From a virus (lineage: Duplodnaviria; Heunggongvirae; Uroviricota; Caudoviricetes): a stretch of 24,683 nt of DNA. The stretch covers positions 1 through 24,683 of the IMG/VR virus record IMGVR_UViG_2512047041_000007; one strand, written 5' to 3'. A model generated the notes under the pieces. The model made no database searches. It saw nothing but the letters and a program-made list of their open reading frames with translations, and was not told the DNA's origin. Shown here one piece after another: positions 1,893-23,709 of this stretch. Position 1 is the first letter of the stretch, and each line of letters begins with the position of its first letter. The translations under genes were made by a program, and so were the position numbers.

Positions 1893-4800
1893 GCGTCGTA
1901 TCCCCCCTGATCGCTGTAGTTACTCCTGGCTTTTGCCTTCAGCCTGCGTTCACGTTCATCAAGCTGGCGTGCCACCTCCCGCGCAATATCCTGCGCACTT
2001 TGTCCTGGCTGCGTCTGAATGATGATCTGCGTCGGTGCCTCAATCCGTTGAACGAGCGGCACAGTGGCTGCGCGACTCACAATTGCTTCTCCACCTTTCG
2101 CGGGAAGTGCCAAAGGGTGCAACGGTGGAAGCTCTGCTGGCGCGGCAGCAACGCCCATCATTCCGGCAACAACGGCAGCCAGTGCAGCTGTATTTCTCCG
2201 GCTGGTCACATTTGCCGGGCCGTTAACAATTTCCGGCCCGTTTTCACCGACGATGCCAAACTGCCCTCGCGGGATATACCCGCCGCTGTCATACATCCCC
2301 GCAAAGCCATATCCCCATGATGGAAAACCACCCGATGGCATCATCACTTTACCGTCTGCATTCACCGTCGCAGGTTGCTGACGCGTCACGCTTTCCGGCA
2401 GTTTTGCCTTTGCGGCCTCTTTACTGACAATGCCGAGCTTCTCCAGCAACCAGGAAACGCCGGATTTCAGGGAGTCCAGCGGATGCATGACCATATTCAG
2501 CCCTTCCGCCAGTGCCTCCCCGAATCGCCGCCCCATTGCCGCTGCACTCTGCAGTTCGGCAGAGGTCGACTTAACGGGCGTCAGCAGATCAGTAAACCAG
2601 CCCCACAGCGCCTGTACTTTGTCGCCAATCCACTGAAACACAGGCTTAAGTGGTTCGAATGCAGCACTGATGGGACCTGCCGCCGCTTTGAATCCTTCCA
2701 CCACGCCACCGAGAAATGCGGTGATGGGTTGCCAGTATTTCCAGACAACCAGCGCCACGCCCGCCAGTGCAGTAACCACAAGACCTATCGGACTGAGCAG
2801 AGCACCTAACAGACCAGATATGGCATACAGGGCAACGCGCAGCATCGCCAGCGGACCAGATGCAAGCACACGAAGCACCGCGCCTGCGGCAGCCAGTCCA
2901 CCGCGCAGTACCGCCAGAGGATTCATAAACATCACAGCAACAGCACGTAAACCGGATAATCCAGACCGCAAAAGTGCAACCGGCGCACCTGCTACAGTTT
3001 TAAGGACATTTCCCGTCAGTGATGCCGTGCGGCGCAAAGACGACAACGGCGCAGTAAGTAAACCTGCGGCGTTGCCCGATGAAGCAAGCCCGCGTCGCAG
3101 CAGTGCCAGTGGTGCGCCAGCCAGCCAGGACAACGCGCTGCTGGTTCGAGTTACTGCTGCCGTAACGGAAGATAACGTTTTGATACCCAGCACAGAGAAT
3201 CCCAGACGGATCACTGCCAGCGGCCCCAGCACTGCAGCCAGCGCCACCGCTAAGGTGCCGAGGCCGACGGTAACCGCAGCCACAACAGCCGATGCTTTCA
3301 TCAGTGTGCCTGTCAGTTCCGGGTTAGCTTCCACCCAGCGACGCAACGCCCCCGTGACGCTTTTCACCGTGTACAGAATATCCATCAGCGGCTGGCGCAG
3401 CGTTTCGCCCAGGCTGCTGAAGGTGTTCTGCGCTCCGGTTTTGACCAGCAACCACTGCGCAGAAAGTGAATCCTTGTTAATGTCGGATTCTTTCTGCATG
3501 GAGCCGAGCGCATCATTGCCCGCTGTCAGTTTTAACTGACGCTGCAGTTCCGGCAGGTTGTTTGCCAGTTTCGCCGCGTCATCGCCAAACTCTTTACCAA
3601 ACAACATAGTCATGGCAGACAGGCGCTTGTCCTGCGGCAGCGCGTTTACCTTCTCCAGCACGCGCTGGATGGTTCCCATCGCATCCTTCGTCATCTGCTT
3701 TTCAATCACTTCAGGATTGAGTTTCAGCAGATTCATCCCTTCAAAGAAACTTTTGCTTTGCATGGTGGCAATGGACAATTCACACACCATCGCGTTTGCT
3801 GCACTGGCTGCAACCTCTGGCGCAGCGCCCAGTGTCAGGAAGGTGGAACCCAGCGCCGCCGCTTTACGATAATCCAGACGGTCAGCCACACCGCCCAGAC
3901 GTTGCATCACATCAATGATGTCTGCCCCTTTCGACATGGCGTTATCATCCAGATAGTTCAGCGCATCACCGAGCTGTTCAATATTGCGGGTGGGGATTTT
4001 GTAGAGCTGGGCGATTTTCCCCAGACTTTCTGACAGTTCATCCGCTGGCAGCTCAAAGGCTGTTGCCGCCTTTGCTGCCGTACTGGCGAAGGCCAGCAGG
4101 TCACGTTTCTGATCTTCCCAACTGTCGTCAGGGTTTGCGACGTTCATGCGCGCGCCACCTTCAACCAGTGCAGCGAAATCCACAGCACCGTTTTCCATCG
4201 GCAACTGTTCGCTGGCAGCCTTGATGGCATCCTGCATTTCATAAAAACGTGCAGTGCGGTTGCCATTATCGTCACGCAGACCATTGACCTGCTTTGCCAC
4301 ACCTTTCATGGCATCTTCCATGCTGGTATAGCTTTTTACTGCCGCCATCACTGGTGCGCCCATTGCCAGCCCTGCAGCCGTGGTGGTGGCTCCGGCACCT
4401 GCAATACGATCACGCACCTCCAGCGAACGGGCATAACTGGCACGCGCTGCATTCATCCTGCGCTGAGCTTCCCCCAGTCGCTTCAGCCGCGCCTCCTGTT
4501 TCGAAAGTTCCTGGTTATAACGTGATGTTTCACGGGCTAAACGGGCAGTTGCTCCCGCATCGTCTTTCGCAGAAATTCCCGCCCGGTACAGTTCAGCACG
4601 CACAAGCGCCGTCTGCTGCTGCAGCTTTTTCTGGCGTTCTTCCAGGCGCTGAACAGCCAGCCGTTGACGGCCCAGAGCAACAACCTGACGTTGCGAAGGC
4701 GGCCCCATCGCTCCCAGTTCCTGACTGAGCAAATTTGCACGCTGGCGGGCATAGTTCAGCCTGTCGCCTAATTTCTGATTTTCTGCCTGCAGCTTTCGGA

Positions 4801-7289: not shown

Positions 7290-7856
7290 TCAGGGGGATT
7301 CATTGATCTTATTTGCCGGAAATTTTCTATAAATGGTAGAAACGCCTACATCAAAAATCAGTGCAATACGCTGTCTTGATTCTCCGGCCTCGAGTAAACG
7401 CCCAATCTGTGCCCACTGTTCGGTGGTCAACTTAGGACGGCGTCCACCTACTCTGCCTTTGGCACGAGCTGCAGCCAGCCCTGCCCTGGTACGTTCAACT
7501 ATCAGTTCGCGTTCCATTTCAGCCAGGGCACCCATGACATGAAAAAAGAAACGGCCCATTGGGGTACTGGTATCAATACTGTCAGTCAGGCTTCTGAAAT
7601 TCACACCACGCTGGCGCAACTCTTCTATCAGCGTAACAAGATGCCGCATACTGCGCCCCAACCTGTCCAGCTTCCAGACAACCAGCGTGTCTCCTGCCGA
7701 TAGTGTCCTGAGTAGTTTTTTCAGCCCCGGTCTGTCGGACTTAGTGCCACTGATTTTGTCCTCAAAAATCTGCTCACATCCCGCGCAGTTCAGTGCATTA
7801 CGTTGCAAATCGGTGTTCTGGTCATTTGTTGACACGCGTACATAGCCAATAAGCAT
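7290..7856 (-). CDS. Serine-recombinase DNA invertase (Hin/Gin/Cin/Pin family)
   Basis: Translation MLIGYVRVSTNDQNTDLQRNAL...GDTLVVWKLDRLGRS...GRFFFHVMGALAEMERELIVERT is near-identical in motif order to Hin/Gin, including the catalytic Ser in YVRVSTxDQ and a C-terminal HTH. Start taken at the third Met of the ORF. Confidence 0.9.
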   Translation of the reverse strand: MLIGYVRVSTNDQNTDLQRNALNCAGCEQIFEDKISGTKSDRPGLKKLLRTLSAGDTLVVWKLDRLGRSMRHLVTLIEELRQRGVNFRSLTDSIDTSTPMGRFFFHVMGALAEMERELIVERTRAGLAAARAKGRVGGRRPKLTTEQWAQIGRLLEAGESRQRIALIFDVGVSTIYRKFPANKINESP

Positions 7857-7883
7857 GATCATCCCCCTGAATAAAAACCGGAG

Positions 7884-8273
7884 ATGATGCCAGTTAGCTG
7901 TTACCTCTGCATTTTCTTAAACGTTGGTTTGGGAGAATTATCTCTGGCTGGCACTGCATCGGGTGTCATTGGCCTGAATGGGTATGTAACGATCCCGTTA
8001 ATTATTTCAGGTTCCCGGAGAACACTGATTATTCAGTGGGGGCAGGCGAGATTTGGTGGGTCTGGTGGTGAAGATGCCGGATATCTTAACGATTTTCCTT
8101 TTGCCTTTCCGTCAGCATGTTATGGAATGATAGTTAGTCATGTGGGGCATACACCTTCAGGCGCAGGAATCCTGTCGGCTTCTGCAATTACATCAAATCA
8201 GTTCCGCGGTTTTTCAAGCATAGCGACTGCTGTAAACGCTGTATTAGGTCGTTATATCGCTATAGGGGTGTAA
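7884..8273 (+). CDS. Alternative tail-fibre C-terminal variable segment, silent in this orientation
   Basis: ORF runs through the crossover site; from the GLGE motif onward it encodes a different C-terminus (LSLAGTASGVIGLNGY...). It has no independent N-terminal domain, so it would be expressed only as an H fusion after inversion. Confidence 0.55.
   Translation: MMPVSCYLCIFLNVGLGELSLAGTASGVIGLNGYVTIPLIISGSRRTLIIQWGQARFGGSGGEDAGYLNDFPFAFPSACYGMIVSHVGHTPSGAGILSASAITSNQFRGFSSIATAVNAVLGRYIAIGV
7912..7937. other. 26-bp invertase crossover site (hix/gix-like), proximal to the invertase gene
   Basis: ttttcttaaacg-tt-ggtttgggagaa: two imperfect 12-bp half-sites around a 2-bp core, same architecture as hixL; its reverse complement shares 14 contiguous bp with the site at 9775-9800. 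Confidence 0.65.
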
Positions 8274-8274
8274 T

Positions 8275-8712
8275 ATGTTTTATAGTCCATCTTTAAACAT
8301 TTTTGTGAATCCTGCACTTAAGGATGATTACATTAATGCAAATTCATGGCCAGATGATGCTCTGGCTGTCAGTGATGATGTTTATAATGAATTTGCAATC
8401 AATACGCCTCCAGATGACAAAATTCGTGTTGCAGGAAAAAATGGATTACCCACATGGGCACTAATACCTCCACCATCACATGAAGAACTTATTCAACAGG
8501 CAGAATCAGAAAGGCAATTATTGCTTAATCAGGCCAACGAATACATGAACAGTAAACAATGGCCCGGTAAAGCCGCTATTGGTCGTCTGAAAAGCGAGGA
8601 ACTGGCGCAATATAATTCGTGGCTGGATTATCTGGACGCACTGGAGCTAGTCGATACTACCGGTGCGCCAGATATTGAATGGCCTACGCCTCCGGCAGTT
8701 CAGGCCAGATGA
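8275..8712 (+). CDS. Alternative tail-fibre assembly chaperone (Tfa'), partner of the silent fibre tip
   Basis: 145-aa ORF starting 1 bp after the alternative fibre segment; C-terminus DTTGAPDIEWPTPP parallels the C-terminus of the minus-strand Tfa (DTSTAPDVIWPELP). Confidence 0.75.
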   Translation: MFYSPSLNIFVNPALKDDYINANSWPDDALAVSDDVYNEFAINTPPDDKIRVAGKNGLPTWALIPPPSHEELIQQAESERQLLLNQANEYMNSKQWPGKAAIGRLKSEELAQYNSWLDYLDALELVDTTGAPDIEWPTPPAVQAR

Positions 8713-9286
8713 CATCCGGCGCGGTGCTGGTATCTGTTGCCGCCACCGCGTCAATGTAATCCAGCACGGCGTTAAGTCGGGTTGTTTCTGCCTGCGTCAA
8801 CTTCCGTCCGGCCTGTAATTTCAGCTGAATCAGACTAATGGAAGCCATTGCTGCATCAATCAGTGACTGGCGCTGTGCTTCTGCCGCGTCTACTGCGGCA
8901 CTATGCTGTGCCTCAGTATCCGTCACCCATTTCTCACCATCCCATTTATCATATGGCGTTAACGGGGCGATAGTGGTTGTATTTTCAGGGTAATCACCCG
9001 GAGCTGTGATTTCTTTCGATTCTCCTGTTTCGGTGCTATAGATGATTTCACCGCGATGGTCTGGCACATATTCCCATGAGTTAAAATCTGCAGAACGGCA
9101 GATTGCATAACCAGCTTTATGTGTAACTGGTGCATCTAAACAAGAACATGCCGGGATACCGACGCCAACCGCAAGATATTCAGTTGATGTGGAAATATAT
9201 TCCCGCGTTTCACCATCATAATTATAAATGGTAATGTCTCCCGCTTTTATGGCAATGAGTTCGTTATTTAATACGGCTTTATTCAT
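8684..9286 (-). CDS. G: Tail-fibre assembly chaperone (gpG-like), expressed orientation
   Basis: 200-aa ORF immediately downstream of H with ATGA-type coupling; conserved Tfa C-terminal motif. Confidence 0.82.
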   Translation of the reverse strand: MNKAVLNNELIAIKAGDITIYNYDGETREYISTSTEYLAVGVGIPACSCLDAPVTHKAGYAICRSADFNSWEYVPDHRGEIIYSTETGESKEITAPGDYPENTTTIAPLTPYDKWDGEKWVTDTEAQHSAAVDAAEAQRQSLIDAAMASISLIQLKLQAGRKLTQAETTRLNAVLDYIDAVAATDTSTAPDVIWPELPEA

Positions 9287-10836
9287 CAGGCAGCCCTCAC
9301 GATATAGTTAAATGCAATATTCCGTGGACGGGTTTCATTTATCCCATATGCTGTTGTTCTCTGATTCCCGACAAAATATCCATTTGGATTAGAAGATACA
9401 GAATAATCATCAAAATCAAGTGGGCTATCAGCACCCGGCGTCAGGCTTGCAATATATCCTCTTCCCATAACTTCTGATGCTGGTATTTCTTTTGTACGAT
9501 AATCACTAACTCTGAAGAGCTGCCCTTGGTGGGTGTGTGATTCCACTCCTCCATTCTGAAGACTTAGCAAGGCACGTACAGCATCAATACCACGCCCGTC
9601 ATCCCAGCCACGAATAAACTCACCACGTAAATCAGGCAATTTATTTGTCGGATAAGCCTTTGCCAGTTCCGGGTATTCTTCAGCAGAAAAAGCGGCACCG
9701 TTGCATTTCAGCCAGCCTGTTGGCGGAGTGGCTGAAGGCCACGGAACAGGCACCCCAACCGGTAATGCAGAGCCTTCTCCCAAACCAAGGTATGTGAGAA
9801 GACCAGCTACATCCTTTCCACTCAAATTGGTAAGCGTATTGTCCAGCGGTTGTTTACCTGCCAGCGCATTAAGCATTGTCGTGGCAAAGTTCGGATCATT
9901 CCCCAGTGCCGCCGCCAGTTCGTTCAGTGTATCCAGTGCAGCAGGTGCAGAACCCACCATTCCTGCAATCGCCGATTTCACAAAAGCCGTAGTGGCAATC
10001 TGTGTATTGTTGACCGACTGCGCCGCCGTGGGGGCTGTTGGCGTTCCGGTGAGTGCCGGACTCGACAACGGTGCTTTTAGTGCCAGCGCATTGTTAATGG
10101 TGGTACTGAAATTCGGATCATTGTTAATGGCTGCGGCTATTTCTTTCAGCGTGTCCAGCGTGGCTGGCGCACCATTAATAAGGGCCGTCAGTGCCGCCTG
10201 TACAAACGCAGTGGTCGCAACCTGCGTGGTATTATTCCCCGCCGCTGGCGTTGGCGCTTTGGGGGTTCCGGTAAATGTCGGGCTGGCTTTTGGCGCGTAC
10301 TGTGAATGCGGGTCCGGTGCGGCAAGATGTTTTGCCATCTGATCATCCGCGTACACCTTCAGCTCCAGTGCCTTGTCATCCACATACTTGCGGGTTGCCA
10401 GCACTACAGCAGGGTCGATTTTCAGGGTGATATTGTCCGTGCTGCTGGTAATCAGCACCATGCGCACGGTCTGAGTGCGCCCGCTACCTTCAGCCAGTTG
10501 CGGCTTATAGCTTTCCGGGCAGTTGCCCACGGCAATCAATGCACCTGACTCATCAAACAGGCCCACTTCACGTATCCACCAACCGCCCTCGTTTTCAGGG
10601 ATCACCTGTTCGGCAATAATCTGGCTGCTGTTCTGCGGGTCGATATAAAGCATATTCAGCGCAGCCCGGCGTTTCTCATTTACCAGTGCCGTCTGCTTTG
10701 CGTCCGGCGTTGGCAATACTCCACCGCCATCGCCCACCGCCATATGGGTAATTTTTAGCGGCACACCGAGCGCGGCGGCGCTGGCAAGTTTCGCCGCGCC
10801 AATATCCGTCAGCAGGGTATAAAATTTTGTGCTCAT
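9286..10836 (-). CDS. H: Tail fibre protein H (constant N-terminal part plus currently fused variable C-terminus)
   Basis: 516-aa ORF with a P2 gpH-like N-terminus, an internal pair of about 50-aa repeats, and the crossover site inside the codons for LTYLGLGE. Confidence 0.9.
   Translation of the reverse strand: MSTKFYTLLTDIGAAKLASAAALGVPLKITHMAVGDGGGVLPTPDAKQTALVNEKRRAALNMLYIDPQNSSQIIAEQVIPENEGGWWIREVGLFDESGALIAVGNCPESYKPQLAEGSGRTQTVRMVLITSSTDNITLKIDPAVVLATRKYVDDKALELKVYADDQMAKHLAAPDPHSQYAPKASPTFTGTPKAPTPAAGNNTTQVATTAFVQAALTALINGAPATLDTLKEIAAAINNDPNFSTTINNALALKAPLSSPALTGTPTAPTAAQSVNNTQIATTAFVKSAIAGMVGSAPAALDTLNELAAALGNDPNFATTMLNALAGKQPLDNTLTNLSGKDVAGLLTYLGLGEGSALPVGVPVPWPSATPPTGWLKCNGAAFSAEEYPELAKAYPTNKLPDLRGEFIRGWDDGRGIDAVRALLSLQNGGVESHTHQGQLFRVSDYRTKEIPASEVMGRGYIASLTPGADSPLDFDDYSVSSNPNGYFVGNQRTTAYGINETRPRNIAFNYIVRAA
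9775..9800. other. 26-bp invertase crossover site inside gene H
   Basis: ttctcccaaacc-aa-ggtatgtgagaa; first 14 bp identical to the reverse complement of the 7912-7937 site, giving an inverted-repeat pair. Confidence 0.65.
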
Positions 10837-11438
10837 GGATTCACTCTCATTGTGTCAATAACATGGACCGCCCCGCCTTCATGCGCGGTGCCACCGGAAA
10901 TAATCGTTTCGTTGATATACGGATAGATCGTGATTTCTTCGCCAAGATAGCTGGCGGCTCCCACCCAATGCGGGCCGCTGGTCTGCAGATTGATGGACAT
11001 GCCGATCATGTGGCGGCTACATGGTTTGGCATCGCTTATCAGTCGCTCAAGTTCCAGATAGGTATCTTCAGTGATGCCCTGGTCCTGCACGCCGATATCC
11101 AGGCGAAACGTGCCCGGTGTTTCTCCGGTCTGCCACAACTCAATAATGCGGATCAGGAATCCGAACGGCTCCACCACCCGCCGCACGGCACTGGTGGTCC
11201 CTTTATGCTGATGAATATAAAAAGCATCCTTCACCACCTGGCGCTTGACGCTTTCTGTCCAGCCCTCGTCCCAGCGATCCACAGAGAACGCCCAGGCGAG
11301 ATAAGGCAGGAAACTGACCGGACAGGTTGCCGGATTCCACAAATCACGAAGCGGCACCTGCAGATCAGAAATCCCGCTGCAGGTTTGCGCCAGTCGGCAC
11401 TCCAGTGGTGTTGAACCCGGTGGCAGCAGACTATTCAT
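10833..11438 (-). CDS. I: Baseplate protein I
   Basis: 201-aa ORF between J and H, P2 gpI-like; overlapping start/stop with neighbours. Confidence 0.88.
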   Translation of the reverse strand: MNSLLPPGSTPLECRLAQTCSGISDLQVPLRDLWNPATCPVSFLPYLAWAFSVDRWDEGWTESVKRQVVKDAFYIHQHKGTTSAVRRVVEPFGFLIRIIELWQTGETPGTFRLDIGVQDQGITEDTYLELERLISDAKPCSRHMIGMSINLQTSGPHWVGAASYLGEEITIYPYINETIISGGTAHEGGAVHVIDTMRVNP

Positions 11439-12339
11439 CCGTTCCTCCGTTGGTTACGCTCCACTGCGTACATGATGCCGCCTGTGTTTTGTTCAGGACC
11501 ACATCCGCCAGAGGAGAAGCCAGCTCCACACGCTGCACCCCCTCAACATGCAGGGCGGCAAAGATGGCGCTACGGCGAATATCCCGACCAAGACGCGTCT
11601 GACTGGCGATGTACTTCTGCAGGCTGGCTTTTGCCGCTGCCATTACCGGCTCTGCTTCCGGTCCAGGATAGAGAAAAATGGTGGCTTCCACGCGATACGG
11701 GATGATTTCTGCGCTGCGAACCGTAAGACGGTCAGCCACCGGGCGGACGTTCTCACTGTTCAGAGCTTTTTCCACCACGTCCAGCAGGTCTTTTTCTGCA
11801 GTTCCATCGCCTTCGCGGCTAAGGACAGTCAGCACCACCTCTGCAGGTGCCGGGCTGGTTGCACTGGCATCCGCCACCCGACCGTCGGCGCTTCGGGCAT
11901 GAAATTCATAAGCTGCAGTTGGCCCCGCAACAGAAAGCCCTTCAAAGGCTGCAGGCACACGCAGGCGCAACGCTTCATCGCTTTCCATCACAGCTGCAAC
12001 GGGCGGCACAGCATCATTATCAGCAGGCGTCACCGTCAGGCGTGTCACGTTGTAGTTGGCAGCGAGCTGGTCAAGATCGCCGCCCATCGCGTAAGCCACC
12101 ATCACCGCCTGCGCGGCTTCGTTAATGCGCTGGCGCAGAAGCAACTCACGGTAAGCGTTCTCCTGCAACAATTTAGTGGCGGGTTCAGATTCCAGTTCCA
12201 GCGTGCGGATCACTGCTTCCTGCTCATCTTTCGGATGAAGCGCCACAAATTCTGCCTTGCGTTCGGCAAGCAGCGTCTCAAAGTCCGGCACATCCACAAT
12301 CTGCGGTGCAGGCAACTGCGAAAGGTCAATCACTGCCAT
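11431..12339 (-). CDS. J: Baseplate assembly protein J
   Basis: Start placed at MAVIDLSQLPAP, which matches the remembered P2 gpJ N-terminus; the ORF extends 13 codons further upstream to 12378. Confidence 0.88.
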   Translation of the reverse strand: MAVIDLSQLPAPQIVDVPDFETLLAERKAEFVALHPKDEQEAVIRTLELESEPATKLLQENAYRELLLRQRINEAAQAVMVAYAMGGDLDQLAANYNVTRLTVTPADNDAVPPVAAVMESDEALRLRVPAAFEGLSVAGPTAAYEFHARSADGRVADASATSPAPAEVVLTVLSREGDGTAEKDLLDVVEKALNSENVRPVADRLTVRSAEIIPYRVEATIFLYPGPEAEPVMAAAKASLQKYIASQTRLGRDIRRSAIFAALHVEGVQRVELASPLADVVLNKTQAASCTQWSVTNGGTDE

Positions 12340-12685
12340 TCTCTGCTCCTGTTGATACGGAAAGGGACACAGGCACACCGTTATTCCGCCGCCCGGTCAG
12401 CTCCACCACCATTGAACCGTCAAAATTGCTGTTGATGGTGATGGAATCCAGCGTCAACCGTGGCTCCCAGCGACTCAGCGCCACATACACTGCCGACATG
12501 ACCTGCAGGCGTAATGCCGGATTTTGTGGCTGATCTATCAGTGCCGACAGCAGGGAACCATATTCCCGGCGGGCAATACGGCTACCCTGCGGTGTCAGCA
12601 GAATGTCCCGCACCGACTGGCGCAGATGATCAATATCAGTAATGACTTTGCCGCTGGTATTGTTCATCCCGCTATAAAGCGTCAT
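12326..12685 (-). CDS. W: Baseplate protein W (gp25-like)
   Basis: 119-aa ORF between V and J, size and position of P2 gpW. Confidence 0.88.
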   Translation of the reverse strand: MTLYSGMNNTSGKVITDIDHLRQSVRDILLTPQGSRIARREYGSLLSALIDQPQNPALRLQVMSAVYVALSRWEPRLTLDSITINSNFDGSMVVELTGRRNNGVPVSLSVSTGAENGSD

Positions 12686-13260
12686 ACCGGGCCTCCGGTT
12701 GTATCGCCGCCTTTCAGGACGCCAGTATGCTGATGCGCATCAACCACGATCCCGTTAGAACTCATCGCTCCGCCGCCCTGGGTAACGCCACCATTGATCA
12801 CCACTTCGCTGTTAATGCGCGTGCGGTCAGCCTCCAGTACAAACTCACTGGTTTTCATGGTGATGTTGTCAGCAGCCTCAATGACCATTGATTTGATGCC
12901 CCTGACATACCAGCGCCCGGTGGCGGGTTCGTATTCAAACCAGCCACCGTCAGGATGTTCTGTCACGCAGGCGTCCGCCGACGTCGACGGTGGTGCGAAC
13001 TGATTCGAATAGACAGCGGGCAGCGCAAAGGCGGTTTCCAGATTGCCGCCCAGACTCAGCAGCACCACCTGCTCACCTTCCGATGGTCGCCACCATGTAC
13101 GGGCATTCCCGGCACGCAGCGTCAGCCAGCTGATCCAGTTGGTTTCAAGCTCGCCCGTTTTCACCCGGCAAAGCCAGTTTTCCCTGTCCACTTCGGTGAC
13201 TACCCCTGTGCGGATCAGGTTGGTGATAAGGCGCATGATTTCGGTTAATTGTGCGTTCAT
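12682..13260 (-). CDS. V: Baseplate spike/hub protein V
   Basis: 192-aa ORF, first gene after a late-promoter dyad, P2 gpV-like. Confidence 0.88.
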   Translation of the reverse strand: MNAQLTEIMRLITNLIRTGVVTEVDRENWLCRVKTGELETNWISWLTLRAGNARTWWRPSEGEQVVLLSLGGNLETAFALPAVYSNQFAPPSTSADACVTEHPDGGWFEYEPATGRWYVRGIKSMVIEAADNITMKTSEFVLEADRTRINSEVVINGGVTQGGGAMSSNGIVVDAHQHTGVLKGGDTTGGPV

Positions 13261-13306
13261 AGGGAAAGGTTGCCATCAGGGGAAGAAAGGCGGCAGTGCT
13301 GCAACT

Positions 13307-13324
13307 TGTATCAGTGCTGATACA
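13307..13324 (-). promoter_or_regulatory. Candidate Ogr-dependent late promoter element upstream of V
   Basis: Near-perfect palindrome TTGTATCAGTGCTGATACAA containing TGT-N12-ACA, 47-64 bp upstream of the V start, in the S-V intergenic gap. Confidence 0.55.
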
Positions 13325-13328
13325 AAGA

Positions 13329-13775
13329 TCACCCCGCCAGCCATTGCAGAATCATGTCGCGGGTCATTGCCTCAACATCATCATTTACACCCAGAAGGCG
13401 ACGCTCTGCGTAACGCACCTCCGGTCCCTTACGACTGACGCGATCTCGCAGGCCGTAATGGTGAACGCGGGCAATGCGCTGCACCTTGCCTTCAAACTGC
13501 ACGCTGGCAGAGTCGGCGCTGGCGGAAGTTTTCAGGTATTTTGTGGTGCGCAGCTTTGCAAACATCTGACGTTTGATACGGCCTTTTTTACTGCGTGCTG
13601 TTACCCGTCGCGGTTCATAACTGCTGCCATCTGGATTGCGCTGCATTCTGATATTTTGCTGCTGTGTCCGGCGTAGTTCCTGCGCCAGCTGGCGCATCAT
13701 GCGGCTTCTTGCGGCTGGCTCCAGATTCGCCAGCAAGGCACTCAGCCAGTCGTCCACTTTCTGCAGTTCAGCCAC
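13329..13775 (-). CDS. S: Tail completion protein S
   Basis: 148-aa ORF, P2 gpS-like in size and position; 8-bp overlap with R. Confidence 0.85.
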   Translation of the reverse strand: MAELQKVDDWLSALLANLEPAARSRMMRQLAQELRRTQQQNIRMQRNPDGSSYEPRRVTARSKKGRIKRQMFAKLRTTKYLKTSASADSASVQFEGKVQRIARVHHYGLRDRVSRKGPEVRYAERRLLGVNDDVEAMTRDMILQWLAG

Positions 13776-14301
13776 GTTTCACCGTCCACATTTCTTCAGG
13801 TTCATCAGGTTCCGCTATAGCTTCAACGCTCGACACACTGCCGTCAGTGCTGACCAGCACACGCTCCGTCAGTTGCAGGTTGAGGCTGATATCACAGACA
13901 TCGTTGCGCAGAATATCCACCTCAAAGGTGAATAGCTTTTCCCGTAACGCCGGGTTATGGTTGAGGCTGATATCACAGACATCGTTGCGCAGAATATCCA
14001 CCTCAAAGGTGAATAGCTTTTCCCGTAACGCCGGGTTATTGATGGCATCGGGCTGGTTATCACGCAGCCACAGCAAAACCGGGGCCATCAGCAGATTCTG
14101 GTCGCCGCTGAAATCCTCAATCACCACGTTCAGGGTGTAGCGGTACTCCCATGACATGGAGCTGGCCCCCGTGGCAACCAGCGAACCGTTATCCACAAAC
14201 AGATGCAGTTTGTCCGGGTTATTGCGGACATAAGGCACCGCTTTATTGAGGGCGTGGCGCAGGGATTGTGGTTTGTTCACTGTTTCGCTCCTGACACGCA
14301 A
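13768..14301 (-). CDS. R: Tail completion protein R, carrying an in-frame 27-aa tandem duplication
   Basis: 177-aa ORF; subtracting the duplicated 27 residues gives about 150 aa, close to P2 gpR. Confidence 0.85.
   Translation of the reverse strand: MRVRSETVNKPQSLRHALNKAVPYVRNNPDKLHLFVDNGSLVATGASSMSWEYRYTLNVVIEDFSGDQNLLMAPVLLWLRDNQPDAINNPALREKLFTFEVDILRNDVCDISLNHNPALREKLFTFEVDILRNDVCDISLNLQLTERVLVSTDGSVSSVEAIAEPDEPEEMWTVKRG
13878..14039. repeat. Perfect tandem direct duplication, 2 x 81 bp, inside gene R
   Basis: Positions 13878-13958 and 13959-14039 are identical base for base; flanking bases differ at both ends. Confidence 0.95.
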
Positions 14302-14533
14302 TAATCATGTCCACTTTGTCTGCACAGACCGCCCAGGCGGCCTCCGTTTCATCCAGCAACGCATTCAGATCACCGTTAGTGCGCGGTGCTGCCTGCTCCA
14401 GCCGACACGGCGTCACTCGCGGACAACCACTGACGGTAAGCTGCACCTCCGGTGAGTGCCGGACGTTCCCGCAGCCGGATAATGTCAGCAGGCAAAGGAG
14501 TATCAGCCCAGTGGCGTAAATCCTCGTTCTCAC
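14243..14533 (-). CDS. lysC: LysC, outer-membrane lipoprotein spanin (Rz1-like), nested out of frame in lysB and overlapping R
   Basis: 96-aa ORF; N-terminal signal peptide with lipobox LTLSGC; Pro-rich mature part; embedded arrangement typical of Rz/Rz1 pairs. Confidence 0.7.
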   Translation of the reverse strand: MRTRIYATGLILLCLLTLSGCGNVRHSPEVQLTVSGCPRVTPCRLEQAAPRTNGDLNALLDETEAAWAVCADKVDMIIACQERNSEQTTIPAPRPQ

Positions 14534-14804
14534 GTTTCAGTTCCTCGATCCGGCGTTGTCGTTGTCTCAGCTGTGCGCTGGTCTGTTCTGCTTCGGCATA
14601 GAGCCGCGCCTGCTCCCGGTTATTGGTTTCAGTCAGAATGGACAGGCTGATAAGCTGGCTGTTGCTCTTTGCCAGTGCCTGGCTTTTGCTCTGCAGCTCG
14701 TTTGCCTGCGTGCTGATGGTCTGGCTGGCATCAGCCAGCCGCCACGTCTGCCAGCCCAGCGCCGCTAGTAATAACGCCAGCACAACCAGCAGCAACCGGT
14801 TCAT
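14376..14804 (-). CDS. lysB: LysB, inner-membrane spanin (Rz-like)
   Basis: 142-aa ORF, N-terminal transmembrane helix followed by a coiled-coil-rich periplasmic domain. Confidence 0.8.
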   Translation of the reverse strand: MNRLLLVVLALLLAALGWQTWRLADASQTISTQANELQSKSQALAKSNSQLISLSILTETNNREQARLYAEAEQTSAQLRQRQRRIEELKRENEDLRHWADTPLPADIIRLRERPALTGGAAYRQWLSASDAVSAGAGSTAH

Positions 14805-15178
14805 GCTGCTACCTGTTGCGCCATCTGATTACGGGTGATCCAGAAGGCAATAACGGTCAGTAGATAAAAGACCAGGGTAATAGCCCACCCCGTCCATGCG
14901 AGACTTACAACAATCAGCAATCGCATCACCCAACTGATAAATACGTTTTCTTTTCGGGTAATTGTCTTCAGCAAAGATGCCCTTAACTCCTGCCAGAGCG
15001 GGCCATTCTGAATTAACGCAGCCAGTGCTACCGGAATTACCGCCCATGTCAGCAAACAGGCTACCCAAACGCCGGACGCTGCCAGTACCGGAAAGATCCC
15101 CTGCGGATACACCATTGCTGCGATTAACAGCGCCATCCATAACATCAGAAACAGTCCGCTGATTAATTTCTTTTTCAT
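14801..15178 (-). CDS. lysA: LysA-like membrane protein (lysis timing)
   Basis: Start placed at MKKKLISG (AGGGAG Shine-Dalgarno upstream, 1 nt after the endolysin stop); multiple hydrophobic helices. The ORF track gives a longer 149-aa version. Confidence 0.7.
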   Translation of the reverse strand: MKKKLISGLFLMLWMALLIAAMVYPQGIFPVLAASGVWVACLLTWAVIPVALAALIQNGPLWQELRASLLKTITRKENVFISWVMRLLIVVSLAWTGWAITLVFYLLTVIAFWITRNQMAQQVAA

Positions 15179-15179
15179 T

Positions 15180-15692
15180 TCAGTTTGCTCCCTGTAAACA
15201 CCAGGCCATCTCCCGCGCACGGCGGTTATCCAGCCCCTGATTAAACACACCTTTTACATAAACCCAGCGCGGCAACTGTCGGCACGCATCCGCCCAGCGC
15301 CGCTGATTGAGCAATTTCACCAGCGTGGAGCTGCAGGCATTGCCTGTCCCCACGTTGAAGGCAAACGACACCACCGAGTCATACACCTTTTGTGGCGGCT
15401 GTTGCTTCACACATCTTTCCAGCGCCCGCTCCACACGCAGCACGTTGGAGATAAGCCCTTCTGCTGCCTGTCGTTCCGTAATGGTTTTGCCGGGAATGAC
15501 GCCCGACGTATTACCAATGCCGTCAGTCCATACACCCGCGCTGCACTGATAGGGCTGCAGACGACAGCCTTCGTAATCGGCAATCAGTTTCAGTCCCTCC
15601 ACGGAGGTGTGAAGCTGCTGAAAACCCGGCAGCGTGGCAGCAATAGCCAGCACGGTCCCGACAAGGCAGCGTTTAACGATTGATGGATTCAT
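15180..15692 (-). CDS. K: Endolysin, T4-lysozyme-like muramidase with a hydrophobic N-terminal SAR-type segment
   Basis: Motif EGCRLQPYQCSAGVWTDGIGNT parallels the P1 Lyz / P21 R catalytic region; N-terminus VGTVLAIAATLPGF is a weakly hydrophobic helix typical of signal-arrest-release endolysins. Confidence 0.85.
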   Translation of the reverse strand: MNPSIVKRCLVGTVLAIAATLPGFQQLHTSVEGLKLIADYEGCRLQPYQCSAGVWTDGIGNTSGVIPGKTITERQAAEGLISNVLRVERALERCVKQQPPQKVYDSVVSFAFNVGTGNACSSTLVKLLNQRRWADACRQLPRWVYVKGVFNQGLDNRRAREMAWCLQGAN

Positions 15693-15888
15693 AGTCCTCC
15701 CGCGAGATCTGCCCGTCGCGCAGAAGCTGGTAGGCTTTGTGTTTGTAGTACCAGTTGATAGCCAGCATCAGCACACCAATCATCAGGCCGCCCAGCGTTG
15801 AGGCATCCTTGATGGACAAATCGCCCAGCCAGACCAGCACAACGGCGATGCAGTACGTGATAAAGGCGCTGATTCGCTCAAGCGTCAT
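15673..15888 (-). CDS. Y: Small holin (two predicted TMDs, pinholin-like)
   Basis: 71-aa ORF immediately upstream of and overlapping the endolysin; two hydrophobic helices and a charged C-terminus. Confidence 0.72.
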   Translation of the reverse strand: MTLERISAFITYCIAVVLVWLGDLSIKDASTLGGLMIGVLMLAINWYYKHKAYQLLRDGQISREDYESINR

Positions 15889-15891
15889 AAT

Positions 15892-16095
15892 TCAGTCCCA
15901 TAGCTGGACGGTCTGCACGGTGGTGGTTGTCGGAATGTCCGGCAGCTCCACCTGCAGCCCGTGAGGTAAAAAGGGGCCATATTCGGCAAGCCCCGGATTT
16001 GCCTTCAGTACCTGCTCCGTGACACCCTGCGTGCGCCCGTAATGACGCCAGCAAAGCGCGTCCACCGTGTCATACTGATGCGCACGCACTTTCAT
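15892..16095 (-). CDS. X: Tail protein X (LysM-like)
   Basis: 67-aa ORF, same length and position as P2 gpX between L and the holin. Confidence 0.8.
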   Translation of the reverse strand: MKVRAHQYDTVDALCWRHYGRTQGVTEQVLKANPGLAEYGPFLPHGLQVELPDIPTTTTVQTVQLWD

Positions 16096-16559
16096 CAGAT
16101 AAGCTCCACTGTGCAGTGCGGCGCGTCCTGTACCCGGCTGATGGCCCAGCGGGCGTCACGCCATAAATCACCGCTGGCTTCCGCCAGTTCCTCGCCCCGC
16201 TTCACACCGGATGCCGTGGCGTCATAGTCCTGGTAACGTTCGTTGAGCATGGCGCGTGCCCAGCAGTAAACCGCGTTGAAATAGTGCTGAATGCGCTCAC
16301 TTTTGCCGTCCAGCTGTTCCGCCGGAACCTCTGCCAGCGAGGCATACCCCAGCATCTGCTGGCATCTGCGAAACTCATACAGCTCTGCGTTGACCTCCGA
16401 AATTGCCGACAGCGCAACCTGCTTTAAACGCGGCTGCGTCACCGTACCGTCAGTGCGCATCACACTGCGGAACTCCGACAGATCCACATCAGGCCAGAAC
16501 GGCGTATTCCTGATGATTTCCGCCTGTTCCGGTGCCTGTTCTGGCGCAACAAACTTCAT
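16095..16559 (-). CDS. L: Head completion protein L
   Basis: P2 gpL-like; start chosen at the ATG preceded by GGAGA (MKFVAPEQ). The ORF extends to a GTG at 16622 that lacks a ribosome-binding site. Confidence 0.78.
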   Translation of the reverse strand: MKFVAPEQAPEQAEIIRNTPFWPDVDLSEFRSVMRTDGTVTQPRLKQVALSAISEVNAELYEFRRCQQMLGYASLAEVPAEQLDGKSERIQHYFNAVYCWARAMLNERYQDYDATASGVKRGEELAEASGDLWRDARWAISRVQDAPHCTVELI

Positions 16560-16654
16560 GCTGCTTTCTCCTGAGATAGAGGGCGGTGGACGGGGTTTTG
16601 ATGTGGCAGTGCCTTTCGCCACCCCGTGCCGCCCGTGCGCGGGGGCACGTTCTG

Positions 16655-17305
16655 TCAGCGGCTGTCATTGCGCAGTCTGCGCTCCAGCTGCTGTTTGTCT
16701 TTTTTCACGCCACAGCGGGGATCGAGCTGTAACGCATGGTTGAGATGATTAAGGGCGGAAGCCGGATTACTTTCACTCAGGACAGCGCCAATCGCTTTAT
16801 GCAGACGCGCCCGTGACTGGTCCGGCATGTCCAGACCGTCTGTCAGCTCCAGCGTCTGCAGCAACAGATCGACATCAAAGCCGGTAGTGGCAAGCATTGC
16901 GCTCTGTGCCGCGTCTGCCATTTCCTCTGCCAGCACGGTTTGCACATTGCGGTTACCCAGCGGCATCACCCAGCCATGACGCAGGGCATGACGCCCGATC
17001 TCCAGCGCCCCGGCATAATCTCCGGCATCAATGCGCCACAGCATCACGTACATCAGCACGTCATCCTGTTGAGCGCCTCCGGCAGCCAGAACACCCTCTG
17101 CCCAGGCGGCGTATTTCGGCAGCAGCTCCACCTTGATTTCCGCTTTTTTGACCGTGGACTGAACGCCCTTGAGACGGCGGCGATCTTCCGCCAGTTGCAG
17201 CAGCATCAGGTCATAGCCCGACGCGTGGCGAACGCTGCCGCCCTCACGGGCGGCCTGTTCAGCCTGAACGCGCAGGCGATGCTGCCGTGCGGGACTCAGG
17301 CTCAT
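16655..17305 (-). CDS. M: Terminase small (endonuclease) subunit M
   Basis: 216-aa ORF downstream of the capsid gene, P2 gpM-like. Confidence 0.82.
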   Translation of the reverse strand: MSLSPARQHRLRVQAEQAAREGGSVRHASGYDLMLLQLAEDRRRLKGVQSTVKKAEIKVELLPKYAAWAEGVLAAGGAQQDDVLMYVMLWRIDAGDYAGALEIGRHALRHGWVMPLGNRNVQTVLAEEMADAAQSAMLATTGFDVDLLLQTLELTDGLDMPDQSRARLHKAIGAVLSESNPASALNHLNHALQLDPRCGVKKDKQQLERRLRNDSR

Positions 17306-17308
17306 GAA

Positions 17309-18367
17309 TTACGCTCCGGTTTCTGCTGCGGCGGCGCTAAAATCGCCAATCTGGATGTTTTCCACCAGTGCAGCGCAGCGGTAGTCCTCAACCACATAGG
17401 CTTCGTTAACGGATTCAAAGTTTTCAATCCGGTCACGTTTCGGGTTGTCGATAACTGAACGGCGGCGGGTGTCTTCCTGCCAGTAAATGGACAGGTTATC
17501 CAGACGGGTGATCAGCAGTGCATTCGGCGGGAAGAACGGCGCACGCACGGCCTGCAGGCCACCCATGCGTTTCTGACTGATGATCATATCGGCAGCCAGT
17601 TTTTCACTGTTTTCCTGCTCTTTGTTGACCAGCGGGAAATACTTGTCAGACAGCAGTTCACGACCGCAAATCACCACCAGATCGTCATCGTCCTGGTAGA
17701 CCACGTCGATAAGCTCATTGACGGCATCCATCACCACAGCGTCCAGGTTGGCATATTCGCCACCTTTACCGACTTTCACCGCGCCCGGTGTGGTTTCACC
17801 GCCCGTGGTGGTGCTGCCCATAACGTGATCCGGTGCATCCTCACGGATTTTCTGCAGCCAGCCTTTGTTCACATCCTGCAGCAGCGGGTTTTCACTACGG
17901 TTGGAGGTTTTCGCACGCTTCACGCCGTTAAAGCCGATCATGATGCGGTCCAGTGCCTGACGTTTCACGATGGCGTCACGGATACGCACCTGGAAATCCT
18001 GAAACTTCGCCCACAGGTCCAGCTTCGCGTAGGTCAGTACCGTGTCAAAGTTGGTCTGCTCGCATTTATATTCCACATCGACCATCAGCGTCGGATCGAC
18101 AGGTTCACGCTCTTTCGCGGTGGTATCAGTGGTTCCGGCAATGGTGCTGCCAACTCCCAACCCCAGCAGCTGACCGGACTGCTCAGTCACTGGCGTGACG
18201 TTAATCAGCGTCAGGAAAGCGGCGGACTGCTGGATCTGGTCTTCCAATGTCTGCTGCACGGACGGCTCTACGGTGAACTTGCTGGACAGTTCTTCAACTG
18301 CCACACCGTTCAGACGCGCCAGTTGCTGCAGATAAGCGTTAAAAGCAAAGCGGGTATTCTTCTTCAT
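17309..18367 (-). CDS. N: Major capsid protein N
   Basis: 352-aa ORF; N-terminal TRFAFNAYL and internal GFNGVKRA/ISQKRMG blocks match the remembered P2 gpN. Confidence 0.92.
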   Translation of the reverse strand: MKKNTRFAFNAYLQQLARLNGVAVEELSSKFTVEPSVQQTLEDQIQQSAAFLTLINVTPVTEQSGQLLGLGVGSTIAGTTDTTAKEREPVDPTLMVDVEYKCEQTNFDTVLTYAKLDLWAKFQDFQVRIRDAIVKRQALDRIMIGFNGVKRAKTSNRSENPLLQDVNKGWLQKIREDAPDHVMGSTTTGGETTPGAVKVGKGGEYANLDAVVMDAVNELIDVVYQDDDDLVVICGRELLSDKYFPLVNKEQENSEKLAADMIISQKRMGGLQAVRAPFFPPNALLITRLDNLSIYWQEDTRRRSVIDNPKRDRIENFESVNEAYVVEDYRCAALVENIQIGDFSAAAAETGA

Positions 18368-18383
18368 CAGGTTTTGTGCTCCA

Positions 18384-19217
18384 TCAGCAATTGGTCAGAG
18401 TGTCAGCGGGGGCGTTACCGCCTGTTGCACGCTGGCGGTAGTCCTGGCGGCTGTCTTCATGGCTCAGCTTGTCCACCAGTTCGTTAAAGGCGGTCTGCTG
18501 TGCCTGCAGGGCAGTCTCCAGCTCAGACAGGCGTTCTTCCTGCTCAGACAGGGATTTTTCGGTGCGCGCACTCAGGTTCTGCTGCTCAGTGGCGACCAGT
18601 TCCACGGCCTTATGCACATCAGAGAACCGGGCGTCATCGGACTGCTCTTTTTTGGTGAACAGCGCCGTGACACGGGCAAACAGGGACGGTTTGTCATCCT
18701 GGATTTCTTCCAGTTCGATCACCGTTTCCTCTGCAGCGGTAAAAAGATTGGCGGGATTCTGCTTGCGGTTTGCCAGCGGGTTATGGGCTGCACTGGCGCT
18801 GAATGTCAGCATTTCAGTGCCCAGACTGGCAGGGTCATCAGTGGCAGCCAGGCCGACCAGGTAGGCTTTGCCCGTATCAGCGAACTTCGGGCTAACTTCC
18901 ATAGATGTGAATAATTTCTGGCCTTTTTTCACCAGTTCCACCAGGGACTCCGTTGGCTCAACGTCGGCATACAGCGCCATCTTGCCTGCCAGCGGACCTT
19001 CCTTGATTTCTTCAGCAAACAGCGCCGTCACCTTGCCGTAGCGGTTAAAGGTGCTGTCCGGCAGATAAGACTTGATGTGCTCAAGGTTAATCAGCGCGGT
19101 ATACACCGCCGGGTTGTAGCTGGCTGCCATCTGTTCCAGCCATTCACGCTGGATTTCGCGTCCGTCGGTGGTGGCACCTTCCACCCCGATGCGAAAACGC
19201 TTTGCTTTCACTGTCAT
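18384..19217 (-). CDS. O: Capsid scaffolding protein O
   Basis: 277-aa ORF, first gene of the O-N-M-L operon, divergent from P. Confidence 0.88.
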   Translation of the reverse strand: MTVKAKRFRIGVEGATTDGREIQREWLEQMAASYNPAVYTALINLEHIKSYLPDSTFNRYGKVTALFAEEIKEGPLAGKMALYADVEPTESLVELVKKGQKLFTSMEVSPKFADTGKAYLVGLAATDDPASLGTEMLTFSASAAHNPLANRKQNPANLFTAAEETVIELEEIQDDKPSLFARVTALFTKKEQSDDARFSDVHKAVELVATEQQNLSARTEKSLSEQEERLSELETALQAQQTAFNELVDKLSHEDSRQDYRQRATGGNAPADTLTNC

Positions 19218-19295
19218 GAGCCGTGCTCCGTTAGAAAAAACTTACTGGAGCCTTATGGTTGCGGTGATGGGGGCAGTGAAACAATGCGCGGTATT

Positions 19296-22185: not shown

Positions 22186-22289
22186 AGAACCTTTATCGCC
22201 ATTTTAGATAAAAAGCAAAAAATGGATCAGTAATATGAACCGCCCCGGGAATCCTGGAGACTAAACTTCCTGAGAAAGAGGTAAACAGG

Positions 22290-22616
22290 ATGACTAAAAA
22301 TACTCGTTTTTCCCCCGAAGTCCGTCAACGGGCAGTCCGTATGGTTCTGGAAAGTCAGAGCGAATATGACTCACAATGGGCGACAATTTGTTCCATTGCT
22401 CCAAAGATTGGCTGTACGCCGGAGACTCTGCGTGTCTGGGTTCGCCAGCATGAGCGGGATACCGGGGGCGGTGATGGAGGGCTCACCACCGCTGAACGTC
22501 AGCGTCTGAAAGAGCTGGAACGTGAAAATCGTGAACTGCGCCGCAGTAACGATATCCTTCGCCAGGCTTCCGCTTATTTTGCGAAGGCGGAGTTCGACCG
22601 CCTCTGGAAAAAATGA
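22290..22616 (+). CDS. IS3-family transposase OrfA (HTH/leucine-zipper subunit)
   Basis: 108 aa; ends at an A6 run (tgg aaa aaa tga) where OrfB begins in the -1 frame. Confidence 0.9.
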
Positions 22617-23503
22617 TGCCACTGCTGGATAAGCTGCGTGAGCAGTACGGGGTCGGACCGCTATGCAGCGAACTGCATATTGCCCCGTCAACGTATTACC
22701 ACTGTCAGCAACAGCGACATCATCCGGATAAACGCAGTGCCCGTGCGCAGCGCGATGACTGGCTGAAGAAAGAGATACAGCGCGTATACGATGAAAATCA
22801 CAAGGTATACGGTGTGCGTAAAGTCTGGCGTCAGTTGTTACGGGAAGGTATCAGAGTGGCCAGATGCACTGTGGCACGTCTCATGGCGGTTATGGGACTT
22901 GCCGGTGTTCTCCGGGGTAAAAAGGTCCGTACGACCATCAGCCGGAAAGCCGTTGCCGCAGGCGACCGCGTAAACCGTCAGTTCGTGGCAGAACGACCTG
23001 ACCAGCTGTGGGTGGCTGATTTTACTTACGTCAGCACATGGCGGGGCTTCGTCTATGTGGCGTTCATCATTGATGTGTTTGCCGGATACATCGTGGGGTG
23101 GCGGGTCTCATCGTCCATGGAAACGACATTCGTGCTGGATGCACTGGAGCAGGCGTTATGGGCCCGTCGACCGTCCGGCACGGTCCATCACAGTGATAAA
23201 GGTTCTCAGTATGTATCGCTGGCCTACACACAGCGGCTTAAGGAAGCCGGATTACTGGCATCAACAGGAAGTACAGGCGACTCGTATGACAACGCGATGG
23301 CGGAGAGCATCAATGGTCTTTACAAAGCGGAGGTAATACACCGTAAGAGCTGGAAAAACCGTGCAGAAGTGGAACTGGCCACACTCACGTGGGTGGACTG
23401 GTATAACAATCGACGATTGCTGGAAAGGCTGGGCCATACTCCTCCGGCAGAAGCAGAAAAAGCTTATTATGCTTCCATCGGAAACGATGATCTGGCAGCC
23501 TGA
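22613..23503 (+). CDS. IS3-family transposase OrfB (DDE catalytic domain)
   Basis: 296 aa with the integrase-like DDE region (WVADFTY...HSDKGSQY...E); probably expressed as an OrfAB fusion by -1 frameshifting. Confidence 0.9.
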
Positions 23504-23505
23504 GT

Positions 23506-23709
23506 TCACAGATAAAACACTCTCCAGGAAACCCGGGGCGGTTCAGTTAATAAATGAGGTTGAGATGGGTTCAGCTTGTTCCGCAGAATCTGCACATTCA
23601 TGCCAGCACGTTCTGCCAGTTGCACCAGATTGTGGCGCAGTGCGAATGCACGACAGGCTTCATCAAAATGTGGATGTTTGGAAACTTGGTAATCAAACAT
23701 GGTTTTCAA
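23506..23709 (-). pseudogene. cII: 186-type cII gene truncated by the IS insertion (54 native codons, remainder read from the IS inverted repeat)
   Basis: N-terminus [45 protein letters not shown] matches the remembered 186 CII HTH region; the native sequence stops at 23546 where the IS right end begins. Confidence 0.72.

Follow-up and report, generated by a model that had tools for sequence, protein, structure and literature searches.

Tail completion protein R (gpR) of phage P2 is a tube terminator that joins the tail to the head; mutant tails have over-long tubes, and in P2 completion mutants the joining of head and tail fails (PMC11784142, PMC11099176). The gpR homologue described here, encoded by a prophage of E. 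coli O7:K1 str. CE10, is a strong match to the same family as P2 gpR (PF06891; UniProt P36933, 155 aa), and the CE10 prophage has the P2 gene order in common, with the lysis cassette followed by R, S, V, W, and J. CE10 gpR is unlike P2 gpR in two respects: it is 170 aa long with an internal 27-residue repeat, in a subfamily whose own length is 143 aa, and the prophage that hosts it cannot replicate.

A gpR gene of Salmonella enterica (GCA_010503415.1, AANXYV010000023.1, 155 aa) carries an independent tandem duplication, likewise in frame, in which a 36-bp unit is present twice (SLNLQLTERVLV x 2; 3314-3390 of locus L003) on a single contig. This duplication starts three codons ahead of the CE10 repeat boundary. 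The Salmonella unit encodes 12 residues and has a 5-bp direct repeat, TCAGC, at its edges, the usual mark of replication slippage in its classic form, which probably explains that duplication; the CE10 unit, in contrast, is longer and has no microhomology.

A perfect in-frame tandem duplication in gpR

The DNA that we analysed is a stretch of 24,683 nucleotides, referred to as the window, and all positions are counted from its first letter unless another record is named. Within it, gpR occupies the position of its counterpart in a P2-type late operon, between lysB/lysC and gpS and followed by the baseplate genes V, W, and J (Table 1). The original prediction, made from the sequence of the window, took this gene to be a gpR homologue, and the profile searches bear this out: the product matches Pfam PF06891 (P2 GpR; P2 phage tail completion protein R) with 173.9 bits (gathering cut-off 25; E = 2.2e-51) and phrog_65, "tail terminator," at 1.1e-66. 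It is identical to AEQ12531.1 / WP_001039940.1, annotated as tail completion protein R (GpR) of E. coli O7:K1 str. CE10; the GTG start is the one indicated by homology to the RefSeq-annotated prophage of E. coli N32, described below. The two neighboring genes are unaffected: the start of gpS overlaps the end of gpR but lies outside the duplication, and lysC, which overlaps the 5' end of gpR, is untouched by it.

Table 1 Features of the CE10 prophage window discussed in the text.
Feature	Position	Strand	Notes
Serine-recombinase (Cin/Gin/Hin-type) gene	7290..7862	-	adjoins the invertible tail-fibre segment
Invertible tail-fibre segment, 1,837 bp	7938..9774		14-bp inverted repeats at 7924..7937 and 9775..9788
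gpS homologue (virion morphogenesis / tail completion)	13329..13775	-	PF05069, 2.3e-42; phrog_26
gpR homologue (tail-tube terminator = tail completion protein R), 170 aa	13768..14280	-	PF06891, phrog_65
Copy 1 of the 81-bp unit	13878..13958	- (downstream copy in gene sense)	second NPALREKLFTFEVDILRNDVCDISLN, running on into LQLTERV
Copy 2 of the 81-bp unit	13959..14039	- (upstream copy in gene sense)	13958/13959 junction = new His codon
lysC (Rz1-like spanin)	14243..14491	-	PF23793; N32 annotation transferred by sequence identity
IS3-family (IS629/IS1203-like) element, ~1310 bp	22236..23545	+	N32 annotation "IS3 family transposase, programmed frameshift"
Truncated cII-family regulator	23539..23700	-	162 nt left of ~510; "incomplete; missing C-terminus" vs full-length in the intact relative L004

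Tandem Repeats Finder reports a perfect 81-bp tandem repeat at 13878-14039 (period 81, 2.0 copies, 100% matches, no indels, score 324), and direct string comparison and translation show that its two units are identical, head to tail, and in frame, just as had been predicted. The period-81 identity ends exactly at 13878 and at 14039 and covers exactly 162 bp. Chance cannot account for a perfect match of 81 bases in 24.7 kb of DNA, and no 20-mer of the unit was found elsewhere in the 24.7-kb window. The span 13800-14100 measures 301 bp with two copies and would measure 220 bp with one.

The reading frame is kept because 81 = 27 x 3. Each repeat boundary splits a codon behind its first base, at offsets 241 and 322 from the gene start. 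The protein has an exact repeat of 26 residues (NPALREKLFTFEVDILRNDVCDISLN), with a new His codon formed at the junction, such that the layout of the 170-aa protein is ...DAIN-NPALREKLFTFEVDILRNDVCDISLN-H-NPALREKLFTFEVDILRNDVCDISLN-LQLTERV.... The claim that 27 residues are duplicated is right for the net insertion; the string quoted in its support has 26 residues, and the His at the junction is new. The PF06891 profile and PHROG 65 each match the 170-aa protein in two stretches, with profile positions ~80-106 matched twice.

At the copy-to-copy junction the DNA reads ...CCGGGTTAT/GGTTGAGG... (with longer flanks, ...ACGCCGGGTTAT/GGTTGAGGCTGAT...), where the slash marks the boundary; the outer boundaries of the units read ...CAGTTGCA/GGTTGAGG... 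at one end and ...GGGTTAT/TGATGGC... at the other. Microhomology at the duplication junction is 0 bp. The start of the unit and the bases just past its end share no short direct repeat of the kind that characterizes slipped-strand (microhomology-mediated) duplication, and at both boundaries hairpins, palindromes, and cryptic repeats were no stronger than in shuffled controls (fold z-scores of -0.5 to +0.4).

The 170-aa protein is found in a single record

Positions 8768-19280 of the window are the exact reverse complement of CP003034.1 1769641-1780153 (E. coli O7:K1 CE10). Since the match is exact, the duplication belongs to the public record and is not a later introduction. The possibility of a planted or synthetic feature was rejected because the duplication is present in this GenBank record.

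The exact 170-aa protein occurs on only 1 contig (CP003034.1) among ~15 billion proteins; the one-copy 143-aa protein, which is the same outside the insertion, is found on at least 1000 contigs by exact-sequence look-up. At the DNA level, a query of 651 bp (13700-14350) corresponds to 570 bp in the records that match it best, and therefore the top DNA matches carry one copy. We also searched for the junction itself. With a 44-nt probe centred on it, which cannot seed a megablast match in a one-copy genome, 5,426 complete E. coli genomes gave 0 matches, as did 50,697 phage records. The CE10 RefSeq record is missing from the annotated E. coli collection, so the junction negatives speak for other genomes only. 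A 44-nt control probe from within the unit matched 734 E. coli records. The exact 32-nt junction had 0 matches in GTDB species representatives, IMG/VR, and JGI metagenomes, and a codon-degenerate junction pattern, which does match the window, had 0 in GTDB representatives and JGI metagenomes.

Among the 5,426 E. coli genomes, 1,043 carry the gene and none of these has a two-copy gpR. The original prediction had proposed an alignment with gpR homologues to see whether any carry one or two copies; in this comparison, no other homologue with this duplication turned up among the 470 clusters of homologues or the 770 representatives of the family. We saw no variation in copy number among strains or relatives in the collections searched, the behavior that defines a phase-variable or contingency locus.

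Comparison with the N32 prophage

The entire window has a match of 100% identity in the prophage of E. coli N32 (NZ_CM165895.1; isolated from CSF), where the matching stretch is 81 bp shorter; removing exactly 13959-14039 gives the N32 sequence. Its record has a single gpR locus. N32 gpR (WP_001039944.1, 143 aa) shares every residue outside the insertion with CE10 gpR and differs in being without the second 81-bp copy. Once one copy is removed, the only differences left between CE10 and N32 are 3 SNPs and the orientation of the tail-fibre segment, which is exactly inverted; there are no further indels in 24.6 kb, and the CE10 consensus is therefore otherwise clean. The proposal that the duplication reflects either a very recent event or an assembly artefact agrees with these data: the allele is in one record, N32 has one copy, and the junction is absent from the collections searched.

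The three SNPs, at window positions 1721, 11137, and 19988, are all non-synonymous (window/N32: P58S in a gpU-like protein, L101W in gpI, and F210S in the terminase). When they are polarised against an outgroup prophage, 1 is derived in CE10 and 2 in N32. That 3 of 3 are non-synonymous would fit relaxed selection, in a sample of very small size.

The tail-fibre segment, bounded by inverted repeats and adjoined by a serine-recombinase gene (Table 1), lies in exactly opposite orientations in the two prophages; the tail-fibre ORF encodes 516 aa in the orientation of the window and 465 aa in that of N32. The opposite orientations indicate that the host-range switch flipped after the strains diverged, even though the prophage is dead for replication.

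The prophage has lost its replication region

In both the CE10 window and N32, homology to an intact relative (L004) is lost past the portal gene and begins again within cII, with the IS629-like element between. The terminal inverted repeats of this element match at 23/25 positions, and it stands in place of ~7.9 kb of early genes that are present in the relative; the genes gone from the CE10 prophage are the replication endonuclease, dam, a traR-like gene, fil, and most of cII (Table 1). N32 also carries an ISL3-family element and clbS between cI and int. The late structural genes, the lysis genes, and ogr are still complete.

Because the replication and early region has been replaced by an IS element, the prophage is replication-defective; it follows that a lesion in gpR costs the host nothing. 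The gpR of the CE10 prophage is very probably under no purifying selection.

Family constraint and expected effect on the protein

Among the close homologues listed (120 of the 470 clusters), almost all are 141-144 aa long compared to 170 aa here, and the length outliers are due to an upstream start, frameshifted tails, or a lysB-R fusion. The expectation that the duplication lengthens the protein is thus met, with 170 aa against 143 aa in its relatives. The spacing between Q76 and E112 is 37 residues in 56 of 77 diverse relatives (range 31-42) and, by our count, 64 in the window. An exhaustive profile search yielded 770 representatives of the family, and across the 150 that were listed the core is collinear with indels of ~7 residues at most. 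The PF06891 family is characterized by a single collinear core of ~135 residues in a protein of 141-155 aa, a trait that CE10 gpR does not show. Judged by its sequence, CE10 gpR is a member of the family by descent with an aberrant architecture.

The duplicated stretch contains ten positions that are invariant in close relatives: N82, R86, L89, F92, D95, I96, L97, C102, D103, and S105. Given that these ten residues are duplicated and that the length of the family core is nearly fixed, we infer that the 170-aa gpR has likely lost its function or is impaired. AlphaFold models of gpR are poor (pLDDT 47 and 39), and no solved relative was found in the PDB, whether the query was the single protein, a shallow profile, or a deep one. 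An alternating hydrophobic pattern (FTFEVDIL, CDISLNLQLTERVLV), taken together with these low-confidence models, tentatively suggests that the duplicated stretch runs from a short helix through a strand and a turn into a long strand, of which it covers the first half; if this reading is right, one breakpoint may lie inside a conserved beta-strand. One copy of the repeat could in principle loop out, such that the duplication is tolerated. In engineered T4 lysozyme, a tandem repeat is reportedly sometimes tolerated with one copy looped out. An effect on tail completion, as originally predicted, is plausible for the protein and probably has no biological consequence, because the prophage is without its replication region.

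Other gpR genes carry lesions as well. A truncated gpR of 115 aa (ENF8990389.1 and others, 9 contigs) diverges after ...CDISLN, continues with PRRKKAPR, and stops; another, of 109 aa, diverges after ...CDIS. These points of divergence lie at the CE10 repeat boundary or two residues from it, which may be a coincidence or may reflect a breakpoint hot spot. A gpR of 101 aa has an in-frame internal deletion of ~42 residues (...KLHLF/GLRDNQ...), an example of structural decay in prophages, and further prophage gpR lesions include frameshifted tails and fusions.

Origin of the duplication

Our preferred explanation, to which we assign a probability of about 65%, is a strain-private, recent, neutral in-frame duplication in the already decaying 186/P2-like prophage of CE10. 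The 81-bp stretch would have been duplicated spontaneously and very recently, during replication or repair, with no short direct repeat involved; a homology-independent route, for example a template switch or staggered breaks that were filled in, would account for this. The duplication would persist since the prophage is dead as a phage following the IS629-like replacement and gpR is free of selection. The insertion of 27 residues in the most conserved part of a tube-capping ring protein would leave the terminator impaired or inactive and the host unaffected. We infer both that the duplication is real in CE10 DNA and how it came about, and the figure given above applies to the reading as a whole.

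An artefact of assembly or finishing is possible, and we regard it as distinctly less probable than a real duplication. CE10 DNA would then hold one copy, the second having been created in the 2011 assembly by a joining error, whether from contig or read ends that overlapped by 81 bp and were joined end to end without being merged or from a mis-assembled gap-closing read. The junction with zero microhomology would suit a homology-independent duplication and an unmerged contig overlap equally well, and an end-to-end join would also yield copies that are 100% identical. The age of the assembly, the confinement of the allele to one record (0/1,043 gene-carrying E. coli genomes), and the single copy in the near-identical N32 prophage speak for the artefact as well. 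However, the other 24.6 kb are free of indels relative to N32, which argues for a good consensus, and an assembler would have no obvious reason to break a contig here, since the one-copy sequence is non-repetitive and N32 has a single gpR locus. A typical 454 or Sanger read is also longer than the 162-bp array, and lesions of like kind in other gpR genes, the 36-bp duplication and the 42-aa deletion, are real.

The evidence leaves even less room for a functional, selected variant, in which a longer terminator assembles and alters the tail or a tailocin, or in which the locus varies in copy number like a contingency locus; we consider this highly improbable. The frame is kept, though this happens by chance 1 time in 3; the late structural genes, the lysis genes, and ogr are intact, and the invertase evidently still flips, a sign that the prophage is still active in part. 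On the other side, copy number is not polymorphic in the 1,043 gene-carrying E. coli genomes, no other homologue among the 470 clusters and 770 representatives has this duplication, the length of the core is tightly fixed, and the prophage has no replication genes. The zero divergence between the copies, together with the lack of the duplication in the sister strain, would leave no time for selection to act. There is only a slim chance that we have underrated one of two things: a real duplication at a local hot spot of illegitimate recombination in gpR, around ...DISLN/LQLTERV..., within a few codons of which three independent lesions end (the duplications of CE10 and Salmonella, the latter of 36 bp, and the truncated 115-aa allele; n=3), or a 170-aa terminator that still assembles, with altered tails or tailocin-like particles.

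Implications

The CE10 duplication is no new kind of element. WP_001039940.1 / AEQ12531.1 is an aberrant singleton allele that is unfit to represent gpR, and the corresponding spot in CP003034.1 is flagged here as a possible sequence error. The finding carries little biological weight: it adds one lesion, or one sequence error, to a prophage in decay, in a neonatal-meningitis strain used as a reference. For CE10 itself, the analysis shows that its "P2-like prophage" is replication-defective, with a tail-fibre invertase switch that is still flipping.
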